This document shows, piece after piece, positions 2,334 to 5,576 of a stretch of DNA of 64,000 bases. Position numbers and translations under genes: made by a program. The stretch lies in the NCBI GenBank assembly GCA_023245155.1, contig JAHFKV010000001.1, positions 267,034 through 331,033 of the forward strand, read 5' to 3'. The notes under the pieces are model-generated. The model saw nothing but the letters and a program-made list of their open reading frames with translations. It did no database searches and was not told the origin of the DNA. Position 1 is the first letter of the stretch. Each line of letters begins with the position of its first letter. The stretch comes from Candidatus Staskawiczbacteria bacterium. Lineage in GTDB: Bacteria > Patescibacteriota > Minisyncoccia > Minisyncoccales > Staskawiczbacteraceae.

Positions 2334-2654
2334 ATGGACTTCAATAGTAAAGAAAGTAGACAATTAATCAGCGCCATTTTGACGCTTAAGACCTATGACG
2401 AAACCAAGCGTTTTTTGCGTGATTTAATGACGGAAAAGGAAATTACCGAGTTTACCAAACGTTTCACCGCTGCCCAAATGCTGGCTGAAAAAGTGCCTTA
2501 TTCTGTGATTGAGAAAAAGACCGGTTTAAGTTCCACTACCGTGGCCCGTGTTTCCAAATGGCTGAATGGAAAAGAAGGCGGTTACAAAAAAGCTATTCAA
2601 AAACTGCATCATCATACATTCCATCCAAAAAAGGAGGGGATTGCCTTGATGTAA
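2334..2654 (+). CDS. YerC/YecD-family TrpR-like DNA-binding protein
   Basis: 106 aa. FLRDLMTEKEITEFTKRFTAAQML...KTGLSSTTVARVSKWL matches the Trp-repressor-like YerC family pattern. Confidence 0.85.
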   Translation: MDFNSKESRQLISAILTLKTYDETKRFLRDLMTEKEITEFTKRFTAAQMLAEKVPYSVIEKKTGLSSTTVARVSKWLNGKEGGYKKAIQKLHHHTFHPKKEGIALM

Positions 2655-2751: not shown

Positions 2752-2853
2752 ATGAAATGTTCTTTGCACAAAGGTGGCGAACACACTCGTGAGGGTGGCG
2801 AACATCGCCGGCAGGGTGGTGAGCACCTCCGCCAAGGAGGTGAGCATCGCTAA
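2752..2853 (+). CDS. 33-aa repeat microprotein MKCSLHKGGEHTREGGEHRRQGGEHLRQGGEHR
   Basis: AGGAG at 2739-2743 sits 8 nt before the ATG. Four GGEHxRx units whose GGEH cores differ only at synonymous third positions. A strong + strand terminator follows. Confidence 0.6.
   Translation: MKCSLHKGGEHTREGGEHRRQGGEHLRQGGEHR
2773..2850 (+). repeat. 21-bp tandem repeat (3.7 copies), coding
   Basis: GGTGGCGAACACACTCGTGAG / GGTGGCGAACATCGCCGGCAG / GGTGGTGAGCACCTCCGCCAA / GGAGGTGAGCATCGC. Confidence 0.9.
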
Positions 2854-2878
2854 CAGTGACCGCTAGGTCACTATGCGT

Positions 2879-2919
2879 GGGTAGTTTGGGGCTTGTCCTC
2901 AAACTACCCTTTTTATTTT
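2879..2919 (+). terminator. rho-independent terminator (+ polarity) overlapping the 3' end of the convergent gene
   Basis: 13-bp stem GGGTAGTTTGGGG (2879-2891) pairs with CCTCAAACTACCC (2897-2909), followed by TTTTTATTTT. A smaller hairpin lies at 2855-2872. Confidence 0.8.
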
Positions 2920-3726
2920 CTGTGCCAGGAGAAAGGCTTCTTGTCCTGGTTGATTCTCATTGCCAGAAAAAAGAATTACACTGTTTCTTTTTGCACCCAC
3001 TTTTATTTTTCCGTCAGTGCCGATAATCTGGCCTCTGCGTACTTTTTCAAAATCTTGAAAATACTTTGTAAGAGTGAAAATGGGATTTTTTGTCACATAC
3101 ATATGATATACATTCATGTAAGATTGTTTTTTAGTTTTTAGATTATTGGCAATGTGCCCACGAGCCTTAAGAAAAGCGATAATAGCATCTTCCGCCTTTT
3201 TTAGAGACCGCGGGTCGTTGTGTTGGCCGCATTCAATACAAATTCCTATTTTGCTGATTTGGTTCATGTAATAATCCGTACCACCAGGTTGCACATTGTC
3301 AAAACCCGATACAACTAGCTTAACCGGTAGGTACTTTGCAATATCAAAGCCATTAGCTTGGCAGATGACAAATGCCTTGTTTTTCACTTTACGGCTTGAA
3401 TGTAGATCAAGAAGTGCATCAACCTTATTGAGATACTTTTTTAAAAACTGGGCACGTTGATATTCGTAACTCCTTCTATCTTTTTTTGGAATTCCAGTGC
3501 GATATTTAAACATCCGGTTTAAATCAGCCTCGGTAAACCGCACCTTTCTCTTTATAGCTTCGGGATTTCCATAACCAAAAAACACCCTGCCCTTTTGTAT
3601 GGTAAGAGAGGGGAGTAGTCTTTTGAAAGCTTCTACGCCACATGGTTCATTGCCATGAACTCCCGCTAGAATCATGCTAGTTGGCCCCCCATTCCTCCCC
3701 TTTATTTGAATGATTTTTTCTAGCAT
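2899..3726 (-). CDS. succinylglutamate desuccinylase/aspartoacylase (AstE/AspA) family zinc hydrolase
   Basis: Contains AGVHGNEPCG, DLNRMF and LDLHSS motifs; 275 aa. Confidence 0.85.
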   Translation of the reverse strand: MLEKIIQIKGRNGGPTSMILAGVHGNEPCGVEAFKRLLPSLTIQKGRVFFGYGNPEAIKRKVRFTEADLNRMFKYRTGIPKKDRRSYEYQRAQFLKKYLNKVDALLDLHSSRKVKNKAFVICQANGFDIAKYLPVKLVVSGFDNVQPGGTDYYMNQISKIGICIECGQHNDPRSLKKAEDAIIAFLKARGHIANNLKTKKQSYMNVYHMYVTKNPIFTLTKYFQDFEKVRRGQIIGTDGKIKVGAKRNSVILFSGNENQPGQEAFLLAQKIKRVV

Positions 3727-3731
3727 GATAT

Positions 3732-3761
3732 TACTTTACTAAAGTAAAGTAGCAAAGTCAA
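3732..3761 (-). promoter_or_regulatory. promoter TTGACT-N17-TAAAGT with palindrome TACTTTACT-TT-AGTAAAGTA, 6 nt upstream of the ATG
   Basis: On the minus strand: -35 at 3761-3756, -10 at 3738-3733, start codon at 3726. Perfect 9-bp inverted repeat at 3732-3751. Confidence 0.6.
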
Positions 3762-3771
3762 ATAGAAAAGC

Positions 3772-3799
3772 TTGACAGGAATTTTATAGCTGCTAGACT
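3772..3799 (+). promoter_or_regulatory. promoter TTGACA-N16-TGcTAGACT
   Basis: TTGACA at 3772-3777; extended -10 at 3791-3799. Confidence 0.55.
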
Positions 3800-3805
3800 T
3801 AAACC

Positions 3806-4004
3806 AAGTTCATTTTCAATTGCAATATCCATGACTTCGGTCCCTTTAGCAATAAAGGGGTGGGCCAAGGTCGTCCTTCAATGGACAGGATGGTTTGTGC
3901 AAAAGTGCAAGCCCGGCTTCCTCCGTAACCATAGGATAATTGATGAAACCCAAGAGGGCAGAGTTAATGAGAAAACAACGGCGCTGTTTGAGCGTTTTTT
4001 GTTT
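3806..4004 (+). ncRNA. candidate structured leader RNA or sRNA upstream of the 4145 gene
   Basis: cUUCGg hairpin at 3833-3842. GCAA-capped 6-7-bp hairpin at 3842-3859. Hairpin at 3867-3878. These are enclosed by 3828-3832/3881-3885. Helix 3890-3895/3927-3932. Weak stem plus T6 at 3982-4004. Confidence 0.4.
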
Positions 4005-4144
4005 AAACAAGGGTGGTACCACGAGTAAAAACTTCTCGTCCCTGTGCGTAATTTAGTTATGCATAGAGATGGGAAGTTTTTTTGTACACGGATAATCTGT
4101 GTACGCTTCCTAAACAGTTCTTTACAACACGGAAAGGAGCACCC

Positions 4145-4939
4145 ATGCCCCCATTGATTGATTGGGATCGGCTGACAAGCTTCGTTGCAAAGGAGGCAAA
4201 AACCAGAGGTCGGCCGGACAGATCAACCGTAGTCTTGGACGGCCTCAAGGGCATTGCACAGCAGGCTGGCGATTTTTCCTGCAATCGGCAAATGTTGGTC
4301 AAAATCGCCAAAGTGCTGTTTTCCGACCAGCCGGTCTTGATTGCGCCTTGCTGTCCTGACTACGGTCACCGGGATGGCCGCTACACGTTCAAAGGCCTGG
4401 GCGGCGGAGTTTCTCTACTGGCCCAAAAGCAGATTGCCTTTTTGGATCTGGTGTGTGCCGCCATCCCAAAAATTTCCATCATGCTGATGATGGCGGATCA
4501 CGAAGCGGATGATGAGGAAATTTGCCGAGCCGTGAAAACGCCGCGGGCAGATTTTCTGAAGCTCATTGACCAGTCCATTGAGGCGACCAGAGCCGTTGTC
4601 GCGCCAAGGGGATGGCAAGTTGAGTGCATGACACACGTGATTAAAGGCTTGGTGGCGCGTGAACAAGAAGCCGCTTGCTGGATTGCTGGTCAGGATGGTT
4701 TTCGCTGCCGGCTGACGCTTGATACGATCAATCGTTCACAGATGTATCGTAACATTAATGCTTCCCTTACCAAGGAGGAGATGCTACAGAGAACCATCAG
4801 GACGGCCGCCCAGTACGTGGCTTTGGGTAGGTATGCCACAGAGCAAGAGTGGCTGGTCTGCAATCATACTACGGTCAATTTGTCGTGGTATTTGCAGGTG
4901 CAAACGGCGGTGTTGCACAATCCCGTTTGCGTGTATTAA
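4145..4939 (+). CDS. hypothetical protein (G+C-rich orphan)
   Basis: AAAGGAG at 4133-4139 precedes ATG 4145. 264 aa; contains LIAPCCPDYGHRDGRYTF. I do not recognise the family. Confidence 0.65.
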   Translation: MPPLIDWDRLTSFVAKEAKTRGRPDRSTVVLDGLKGIAQQAGDFSCNRQMLVKIAKVLFSDQPVLIAPCCPDYGHRDGRYTFKGLGGGVSLLAQKQIAFLDLVCAAIPKISIMLMMADHEADDEEICRAVKTPRADFLKLIDQSIEATRAVVAPRGWQVECMTHVIKGLVAREQEAACWIAGQDGFRCRLTLDTINRSQMYRNINASLTKEEMLQRTIRTAAQYVALGRYATEQEWLVCNHTTVNLSWYLQVQTAVLHNPVCVY

Positions 4940-4941
4940 TC

Positions 4942-4985
4942 GTTGCCGCCTAAACTTGTACAAGTTTAGGCGGCAACATCTTTTC
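4942..4985 (+). terminator. terminator-like perfect palindrome
   Basis: GTTGCCGCCTAAACTTGT pairs with ACAAGTTTAGGCGGCAAC (4942-4977), followed by ATCTTTTC. Confidence 0.65.
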
Positions 4986-5576
4986 ATGATTACTTTTATT
5001 AAAACGTTGCGCTATGAGACAAATCCCAAAGAAACGGATGTGTTTGAATATCTTACGCTTTTAGGTTTGCAAAAAATAGATCCTGCCAGTACTGCAAACT
5101 CTTTTTTAACTCTTGACGCAGATGTTATTTTTTATTCACCATTAAAAAGAGTTGCAACCACGATACGTTTGCCCAAACATAAAAAAATCACGGCCGTAAA
5201 AAAAGATGCCCTTAAAGAAATTGTGTTTGATCTTGAAAAATTATGTTCAAAACAAGAGTATCAAAAGTACAAAAGCAAGATTGTCAGAAGAAGATTTAAA
5301 GAAGCTTTTATCCAAGATGCGCTGCCCGTTAAAAGAGCATTTATTTTTAGAGAAATAAAAGATATATTACGTTTATGTTTAATCTATCAAGAGGCAACCG
5401 TTGCCATTGTTTCGCATTCTTTTCGTTTAAAAATTATGGAAGCGTTTATTAAAACAAAAGGTAAAATTATATCTAACCCGGCATTGATTCATACCTATAT
5501 TTTTGACGATCAAAAGACCTATGAATTCGGTGAAGGTTTTACAATAGATACTAAAGATCTGCAGTTTTTAAGATAA
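4986..5576 (+). CDS. histidine phosphatase (PGAM/SixA-like) family protein
   Basis: Contains YSPLKRVATTI and IVSHSFRLKIMEAF motifs. ATG 4986 follows the terminator. The 4719 extension in the ORF track overlaps the upstream gene. Confidence 0.6.
   Translation: MITFIKTLRYETNPKETDVFEYLTLLGLQKIDPASTANSFLTLDADVIFYSPLKRVATTIRLPKHKKITAVKKDALKEIVFDLEKLCSKQEYQKYKSKIVRRRFKEAFIQDALPVKRAFIFREIKDILRLCLIYQEATVAIVSHSFRLKIMEAFIKTKGKIISNPALIHTYIFDDQKTYEFGEGFTIDTKDLQFLR

Follow-up and report, generated by a model that had tools for sequence, protein, structure and literature searches.

A putative T-box riboswitch variant with predicted tRNA-Trp specificity precedes a gene of no known family in Patescibacteria

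Organization of the locus

We analysed a stretch of 64,000 nucleotides (nt) of contig JAHFKV010000001.1 from Candidatus Staskawiczbacteria bacterium (the window; positions are counted from its first letter), in which a leader region at 3772–4144 is flanked upstream by an AstE/AspA-like gene on the opposite strand and runs into a gene for a 264-amino acid (aa) protein, itself followed by a conserved partner gene (Table 1). An initial annotation, made from the sequence alone, had likened this leader to a riboswitch or attenuator of no class that it could name. Considering its sequence and that of its relatives, we read it as a transcription-attenuating T-box riboswitch specific for tRNA-Trp and put the probability of this reading at about 0.85.

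The σ70-type promoter that had been proposed for the leader is well supported. Its two hexamers match the consensus at 10 of 12 positions, the spacer is 16 nt long, a TG is present, and TTGACA/TAnAnT pairs occupy the equivalent relative position in five related leaders (L027, L071, L072, L020 and L009; L numbers denote loci of homologues of the regulated gene). The transcript then contains, as described earlier, a leader of about 340 nt that ends in a Shine-Dalgarno (SD) sequence, GGAG at 4136–4139, and the ATG at 4145. The richness in G+C that had also been claimed is only mild, 0.42–0.45 against 0.38–0.40 in the surroundings. The folding of the leader region stands out from that of shuffled sequences, with a z-score of −4.67 and none of 200 shuffles as good.

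Identification as a probable T-box

At Rfam gathering thresholds, no family was found in the whole window, and only tRNAs were found in 20 related loci. The T-box was recognized only under E-value reporting of the Rfam search, in which RF00230, the T-box leader family, aligns to positions 3822–4046 over its full model (1–219) with a score of 41.5 bits and an E-value of 6.9e-8. This family is the sole Rfam match at E ≤ 0.01 across the 64 kb on both strands (E 8.8e-6). The cmscan search that the initial annotation had recommended thus supplied, in the form of a sub-threshold match, the class that it had been unable to name.

About 60 loci of homologues of the 4145 gene were fetched, and ten further leaders with a shared layout were found directly 5′ of these homologues (L024, L027, L071, L072, L020, L011, L017, L018, L035 and L009; L011 and L040 are duplicates, as are L035 and L037). 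The L027 leader was picked up in an nhmmer search with a profile built on Stem II and IIA/B. Seven of the ten are also called T-box by Rfam, at 29.5–57.4 bits, with none reaching the gathering score of 93; over the window and its relatives, the E-values range from 7e-8 to 8e-3 and are significant or borderline. Judging from these matches and from the elements described below, the segment 3827–4083 very probably constitutes a T-box-type tRNA sensor together with its switch.

Antiterminator and terminator

The T-box sequence, AGGGUGGUACCACG, departs at a single position from the canonical AGGGUGGNACCGCG and is kept in the ten related leaders, where L027 carries the variant UGGCAAC. It forms the 5′ side of an antiterminator in which two helices, both covarying across relatives, flank a 7-nt bulge. 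The antiterminator is followed by a long intrinsic terminator hairpin, equivalents of which are found in related leaders. The 5′ arm of this terminator (4032–4043) is also the 3′ half of the antiterminator, and the two folds are mutually exclusive. A weak antiterminator (−8.1 kcal/mol) facing a strong terminator (−32.1 kcal/mol) is the pairing typical of T-boxes.

Both the T-box sequence and the true terminator had been overlooked. The weak stem with T6 that had been likened to an attenuator (3980–3996) belongs to Stem III, and the real terminator is located about 80 nt farther downstream. The actual switch at 4010–4083 lies partly outside the helices that had been described. Several apparent GGUGGAAC matches that resemble a T-box in T-box-less loci were rejected: they are UGG-UGG codons of leader peptides.

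Architecture of the sensor domain

The Stem I domain is delimited by the closing helix P1 and contains an outer helix, an inner hairpin, the specifier bulge on the 3′ side of the inner hairpin and a second, variable hairpin, hp2 (Table 1). The inner hairpin is 6–10 base pairs (bp) long and its loops vary (GCAA, GGACAAA or longer); cmscan sets 88 model positions against 54 nt here. In L009, Stem I is ultrashort, and the UGG, followed by an A, is placed in the terminal loop GAAAUGGA.

This architecture differs for the most part from the three-hairpin junction that had been drawn from the window sequence. The GCAA-capped hairpin is real and conserved, as the inner part of Stem I. In contrast, the cUUCGg hairpin (3833–3842) and the third hairpin (3867–3878) are not conserved, and relatives retain the outer helix and hp2 in their stead; the former closing stem, 3828–3832/3881–3885, yields to the covarying P1; and the helix 3890–3895/3927–3932 finds no support, since it is Stem II that covaries.

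Downstream of Stem I, the leader contains Stem II, Stem IIA with an F-box-like sequence, the IIA/B pseudoknot, an extra helix that we call PX, and Stem III. In each of 10 leaders, invariant U-G, G-U and C-G pairs form the top of Stem II (3897–3900/3905–3907), which is capped by a loop of 4 nt, often of the GNRA type. In other T-boxes, the codon-anticodon helix is contacted by an S-turn, and this stack may take its place. The two strands of the pseudoknot change together and are found as UCCU/AGGA, GCCU/AGGC, UCCC/GGGA and UCUC/GAGA. The PX stretch is an insertion relative to RF00230 in the cmscan alignment; the helix encloses a small hairpin (CCC 3949–3951 / GGG 3956–3958) and is followed by a conserved UGAGA, the whole element spanning 3939–3972. 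Stem III is present in most relatives and missing in L024.

Table 1 Features of the leader, its genomic surroundings and related loci
Feature	Position	Strand	Basis or remark
AstE/AspA-like gene	2899–3726	−	Upstream flank of the leader region 3772–4144
σ70-type promoter	3772–3799	+	−35 TTGACA 3772–3777; TG-extended −10 TAGACT 3794–3799
Stem I domain	3827–3891	+	Hand-registered helix table
Closing helix P1	AUCC 3827–3830 / GGAU 3888–3891	+	31 of 32 cells paired; C-G to U-A exchange
Stem I outer helix	3833–3840/3865–3872	+	37 of 40 cells paired; compensatory changes in 5 of 5 columns
Stem I inner hairpin, GCAA loop	3841–3848/3853–3860	+	40 of 40 cells paired; compensatory changes in 4 of 5 columns
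Specifier bulge UGGG	3861–3864	+	Candidate codon UGG (Trp) 3861–3863 with 3′ purine G3864
Second hairpin hp2	3873–3886	+	Variable; missing in L035
Stem II	3892–3900/3905–3913	+	100% of cells paired; 5 of 9 pairs compensatory (10 sequences)
Stem IIA	3914–3916/3923–3925	+	Counted in the covariation set
F-box-like CCGUAA	3923–3928	+	cmscan alignment to the RF00230 F-box
IIA/B pseudoknot	Loop UCCU 3919–3922 / AGGA 3933–3936	+	95% paired; 3 of 4 pairs compensatory
Extra helix PX	AUUGAU 3939–3944 / GUUAAU 3963–3968	+	96.7% of cells paired; 4 of 6 pairs compensatory
Stem III	3972–4004	+	cmscan alignment and fold; contains stem GGCGCU/AGCGUU 3980–3996
T-box sequence	4010–4023	+	13 of 14 positions match the canonical sequence
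Antiterminator	4010–4043	+	A1, 7-nt bulge and A2
Helix A1	AGGG 4010–4013 / CCCU 4040–4043	+	Covaries across relatives
7-nt bulge UGGUACC	4014–4020	+	UGGU 4014–4017 is the predicted partner of the tRNA 3′ NCCA
Helix A2	ACGAG 4021–4025 / CUCGU 4035–4039	+	Covaries across relatives
Intrinsic terminator	4027–4083	+	Long hairpin; U7 tail 4077–4083
Post-terminator leader	4084–4144	+	Hairpin 4084–4104; conserved GUUCUUU 4117–4123 complementary to SD region AAAGGAG 4133–4139
Regulated gene, 264-aa protein	4145–4939	+	Fold like class I aminoacyl-tRNA synthetase, cyclodipeptide synthase and PvcA (Rossmann)
Partner gene, 196-aa protein	4986–5576	+	His_Phos_1-like (PF00300); conserved downstream
TrpR-family (PF01371) genes	Window 2334–2654; L005 114–392; L006 2474–2761; L022 2416–2706		
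Leader peptides with adjacent Trp codons	L031 108–158; L019 2808–2882; L025 533–613; L036 2819–2890; L067 1346–1396; about 20 others		

Covariation of the helices

Stem II, Stem IIA, the pseudoknot and PX were examined as one covariation set in a MAFFT alignment of 10 leaders. In this set, 98.2% of the cells are paired, compared to 36–52% when the partners are slid against each other; 12 of 22 pairs carry compensatory changes, and none of 500 shuffles was as good. Independently, RNAalifold applied to the plain MAFFT alignment recovers Stem II, the pseudoknot helix and PX. Because MAFFT misregisters Stem I, its covariation was tabulated by hand, and 179 of 185 cells pair in the hand-registered P1, Stem I helices, A1 and A2. 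The initial annotation had held that a lack of covariation and of conserved structure in relatives would speak against a regulatory RNA, and we find strong covariation instead. Judged by these sequence comparisons, the leader is a genuine cis-regulatory RNA and an undescribed structural variant of the T-box riboswitch, with termination predicted at 4083.

Evidence for tRNA-Trp as the ligand

The UGGG of the specifier bulge is invariant in all 10 bulge-type leaders, and what lies 5′ of it varies between G, U and AA: the window and L024 have a G before UGG, most leaders a U and L027 an A. Because of this variation, UUG and GUG were dropped as specifiers. A purine follows UGG directly before the helix, as is the case in canonical specifier loops. 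Furthermore, at the T-box base that faces the discriminator of the tRNA, seven leaders have C, four have U and none has A or G (n = 11). This choice of C or U fits a G73, which is the discriminator base of a Patescibacteria tRNA-Trp gene with anticodon CCA found in L006 (2887–2962). Among the Trp T-boxes of TBDB, U is found opposite G73 in 46% (PMC7778990).

The loci that lack the T-box provide a second line of evidence. Of the 40 distinct loci without a T-box, 23 have a short open reading frame (ORF) with two or three adjacent Trp codons (WW or WWW) in the 300 nt that precede the homologue. Among the controls, the reverse strand gave 3 of 40, downstream regions gave 0 of 31, and shuffled sequences averaged 0.6. 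Examples of the encoded peptides are MIIQYRTSVWWNSHSV in L031, ...NAWWWLAF... in L025 and ...VVWWWTL... in L036. Downstream of these ORFs lie alternative hairpins and a terminator; GGAGCG of L031 can pair either with an upstream segment or with the terminator arm CGCUCC. By its layout, the arrangement is a classical trp-type ribosome-mediated attenuator. No small ORF of the WW type was found in the T-box loci, and when the proteins are placed on a rough neighbour-joining tree, the two kinds of leader are intermingled.

Other genes near the homologues are also connected with Trp. In L006, a series on a single strand runs from a WW leader (2781–2843) through a terminator-like hairpin and the tRNA-Trp gene to the homologue (2781–3783 in all), and the partner gene comes next. 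Only 30 nt separate the tRNA-Trp gene from the homologue, with which it appears to be co-regulated. Genes of the TrpR family are found directly upstream on the same strand in L005, L006 and L022, and 1.5 kb upstream in the window. As two different devices are both tied to Trp, the gene family would be controlled by the charging of tRNA-Trp, which would also fix the specificity of the T-box. We consider tRNA-Trp to be the highly likely ligand.

Comparison with known systems

With the canonical class I transcriptional T-boxes of Firmicutes (such as B. subtilis tyrS and glyQS), the leader shares the T-box sequence of 14 nt, the competition between a terminator and an antiterminator that carries a UGGNACC bulge, Stem II, the IIA/B pseudoknot, the F-box-like CCGUAA, Stem III, and a candidate specifier followed by a purine. 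It also shares a promoter-proximal position before a gene whose product has a fold akin to that of aminoacyl-tRNA synthetases (aaRSs). It differs from them in its host, a member of the Patescibacteria or candidate phyla radiation (CPR), in a target gene of no known family, and in several elements of its sensor. The AG bulge/distal-loop platform, which binds the tRNA elbow, is absent from Stem I in the leaders compared. The candidate codon is placed in a bulge of 4–5 nt and not in a specifier loop with an S-turn. A three-way junction of P1, Stem I and hp2, the latter being an extra hairpin, occupies the place of the kink-turn (K-turn) in the window and in most of the related leaders, and a K-turn-like AAUGA...GA is found only in L035, which has no hp2 at that position, and in L009. 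Finally, PX adds a covarying helix to the stretch that joins the pseudoknot to Stem III.

Among known forms, the class II T-boxes of actinobacterial ileS genes (for example, that of Mycobacterium tuberculosis) come closest. Their Stem I is truncated and the elbow platform is missing; the candidate codon of L009 is located in the terminal loop, as in the ultrashort ileS form. The ileS T-boxes, however, sequester the SD sequence, regulate translation and respond to Ile, whereas the window leader has a strong terminator with a U7 tail and is assigned to Trp, and its candidate codon sits in a bulge below a hairpin that is retained. The Trp-family T-boxes of Firmicutes (trpS, the trp operon, rtpA and trpXYZ) have in common with it a UGG specifier, which is a candidate here, and the mix of C and U opposite G73, but their Stem I is different, and the gene controlled here encodes neither tryptophanyl-tRNA synthetase (TrpRS) nor a trp biosynthesis enzyme or a transporter. 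The trp attenuators (E. coli trpL and the leader of the auxiliary trpRS1 of Streptomyces) respond to charged tRNA-Trp and decide whether a terminator is read through. A trpL-like device replaces the T-box before most homologues, whereas the window features a predicted RNA-tRNA pairing and no such leader peptide.

Alternative explanations

The structural departures listed above, namely the missing platform, the junction at the place of the K-turn and the bulged codon outside an S-turn context, weigh against a functional T-box for tRNA-Trp, and so do four further points. The score of 41.5 bits is under half of the gathering score of RF00230, and curated thresholds miss the element. The register of the codon rests on analogy and on the indirect evidence for Trp. 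The register of the Stem I helices was set by hand, as MAFFT misplaces the bulge and the outer helix when loop lengths vary. Lastly, ARAGORN and Rfam found no tRNA gene in the 64-kb window, and G73 was taken from L006.

Some of these points, together with the mismatch in the T-box 14-mer, would also suit a decayed T-box relic, or a structured leader with constitutive termination or control by a protein and no sensing of tRNA. Yet the T-boxes of actinobacterial ileS genes are functional even though their Stem I has no platform. A class of T-boxes with a truncated Stem I has been noted (PMC7778990). Moreover, the 11 leaders, ten of them before genes whose proteins are only 35–53% identical to that of the window, keep their helices through compensatory changes and leave UGGG and the UGGNACC bulge unchanged (apart from the UGGCAAC of L027). 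This pattern of conservation signifies purifying selection on the RNA and makes a relic improbable. The chances of a functional T-box that reads another tRNA are slightly lower still. Given the non-canonical context of the specifier, tRNA-Gly could be read through the GGG (3862–3864) that the UGGG bulge also contains or through GGC, and a triplet that starts one base earlier would call for tRNA-Leu or tRNA-Val. However, UGG is preceded by a variable base, so that UUG and GUG are not conserved, and GGG as the codon leaves no purine before the helix. Bacterial tRNA-Gly has U73 and would need UGGA in the T-box, but A is seen at this position in none of the 11 leaders. The family is otherwise found under WW leader peptides and beside a tRNA-Trp gene.

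A small-molecule riboswitch with an aptamer at 3828–3932 and an expression platform is the kind of element that the initial annotation had in view; its ligand might be tryptophan or a related metabolite. A compact multi-helix domain with a pseudoknot 5′ of a terminator and the lack of an Rfam class at gathering score are in keeping with it. The sole Rfam similarity, however, is to the T-box and extends over the full model; the UGGNACC bulge, the antiterminator, the F-box and the IIA/B pseudoknot are T-box hallmarks; and the conservation is explained without a further junction resembling a ligand pocket. We regard such an aptamer as very unlikely. Of the earlier reading, the promoter, the structured sensor, the attenuator and the SD-bearing gene stand, and the nature of the sensor changes. 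An equally low probability is attached to a role for the 65-aa ORF at 3831–4028, either as a protein or through ribosome stalling on its four Trp codons. It begins with ATG, and Trp leader peptides do precede relatives of the gene, but it has no SD sequence, and its UGG triplets come from the conserved RNA motifs GGUGGG and GGGUGG. A conserved frame with protein-like substitutions, which would have been evidence for coding, is not seen: the longest ATG-initiated ORFs of the other ten leaders span 2–28 aa, none of them is of the WW type, and the substitutions track base pairing and not codon structure. We therefore rejected the ORF as a coding sequence.

Proposed model of regulation

Combining the elements of the T-box reading, we propose the following model for the regulation of the 4145 gene. 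RNA polymerase would start at about 3806, as predicted from the promoter, and transcribe the sensor, which consists of Stem I with its UGG bulge, Stem II, the IIA/B pseudoknot, PX and Stem III. The CCA anticodon of tRNA-Trp would pair with UGG at 3861–3863, and the anticodon stem is presumably held in place by Stem II and the pseudoknot, in the manner of the actinobacterial ileS T-boxes; the leader would thus bind its tRNA and operate without a Stem I platform. If this tRNA is uncharged, its free 3′ end, (G/A)CCA, would pair with UGGU at 4014–4017 and stabilize the antiterminator. With the antiterminator held, the terminator would be blocked and the polymerase would read through into the 4145 gene and its partner. 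Charged Trp-tRNA could not make this contact via its 3′ end, and the terminator would form and stop transcription in the cell at the U7 tail.

A further element is found in the post-terminator leader. The motif GUUCUUU occurs 25–35 nt 5′ of the start codon in 19 of 54 loci, under both types of leader. Its pairing with the SD sequence shows in minimum free energy folds; the hairpin is weak, with energies no better than those of shuffled sequences in most loci. It could be a weak mask of the SD sequence that adds a translational layer.

The regulated gene and its partner

The 264-aa protein has 53 homologues, nearly all from metagenome-assembled genomes of Patescibacteria/CPR and one from Amycolatopsis marina. 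It has no match in Pfam (including tRNA-synt_1b), NCBIfam or PADLOC, and tblastn searches of plasmids and phages returned no homologue; nothing relevant to the family was found in the literature searched. A profile search expands the family to 459 representative clusters, 109 of which have E ≤ 1e-30, and its remote members are also without a Pfam domain. Within Patescibacteria, its occurrence is sporadic. The gene coincides with a local peak of G+C content (0.50–0.55) between regions of 0.32–0.42, which may reflect horizontal acquisition.

The AlphaFold (AF2) model of the protein is of high confidence (pLDDT 96.4). In a Foldseek search of the PDB, this model is similar to variants of the M. 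jannaschii tyrosyl-tRNA synthetase MjTyrRS (template modelling (TM) score up to 0.53), to cyclodipeptide synthases (CDPSs; target-normalised TM up to 0.58) and to PvcA (3e59, 0.50); archaeal TrpRS is also listed, and the matches have TM scores of about 0.45–0.6 and E-values of about 4e-4. On the basis of this model, the protein resembles class Ic aaRSs, CDPSs and PvcA in its fold only, which does not amount to family membership. Sequence comparisons yield local and non-significant similarities. The best match of a PDB profile search is TrpRS 7el8 (non-significant E of 0.51), through the local segment RTxxTAAQYxALG; hhalign places this segment on E. coli TrpRS (non-significant E of 0.049) and LLxADxEA on the ADLHA strand of MjTyrRS (non-significant E of 0.051). 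The alignment of homologues contains neither HIGH nor KMSKS motifs. Its invariant residues include Cys70, just after strand 1, Glu173, Arg197, Gln223-Tyr224 and His241, and the C-terminal Tyr264 is nearly invariant. The mode of regulation argues for a role in which the protein would restore or protect Trp-tRNA-Trp and not consume it.

The partner gene is probably the second gene of the regulated operon. Its equivalents, of about 190–217 aa, are encoded on the same strand 5–60 nt downstream in most loci (about 30). Of the catalytic core, the Arg, the Glu and the second His are kept, but an invariant Tyr at position 10 takes the place of the nucleophilic His. A perfect 16-bp hairpin, GTTGCCGCCTAAACTT GTAC AAGTTTAGGCGGCAAC, is located at 4942–4977 between the stop codon of the 4145 gene and the ATG of the partner gene at 4986; it was flagged as terminator-like by a scan, and the partner gene has no obvious SD sequence.

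Only the A. marina homologue (L012, NZ_FOKG01000011, 2252–5080) comes from an organism in culture. Its gene shares 14 nt with that of a cytochrome P450, and a LysE-type exporter is encoded upstream; the P450 also scores against models of CDPS-associated P450s and of TxtE. Neither a T-box nor a WW leader was seen at this locus, which looks like a small biosynthetic cluster.

Implications

T-boxes are known mainly from Firmicutes and Actinobacteria, and we found no link between T-boxes and the candidate phyla radiation in the literature searched, coverage of which was limited. All 11 leaders score far below the Rfam threshold, and standard annotation and resources derived from Rfam would miss them. 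If our reading is correct, a T-box without platform and K-turn can act by transcription termination, and its compact alternative domain for tRNA decoding would help to define what tRNA recognition minimally requires and to improve covariance models.

The T-box, the interchangeable WW-leader attenuators, the tRNA-Trp gene of L006 and the nearby TrpR-like genes may mark the two genes as a previously unrecognised module. The ultrasmall symbiotic bacteria of the CPR cannot make tryptophan. We tentatively suggest, as one possibility among others, that this Patescibacteria module answers to the charging of tRNA-Trp and offers a new route by which Trp-tRNA-Trp is restored. If so, it might comprise a non-canonical enzyme of Trp activation or transfer, serve in Trp salvage, or protect against TrpRS inhibitors made by actinobacterial hosts. 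The riboswitch and the Trp leader peptides label an uncharacterised aaRS/CDPS-like family as tied to tryptophanyl-tRNA homeostasis, and the T-box points to a new Trp-linked enzyme family.

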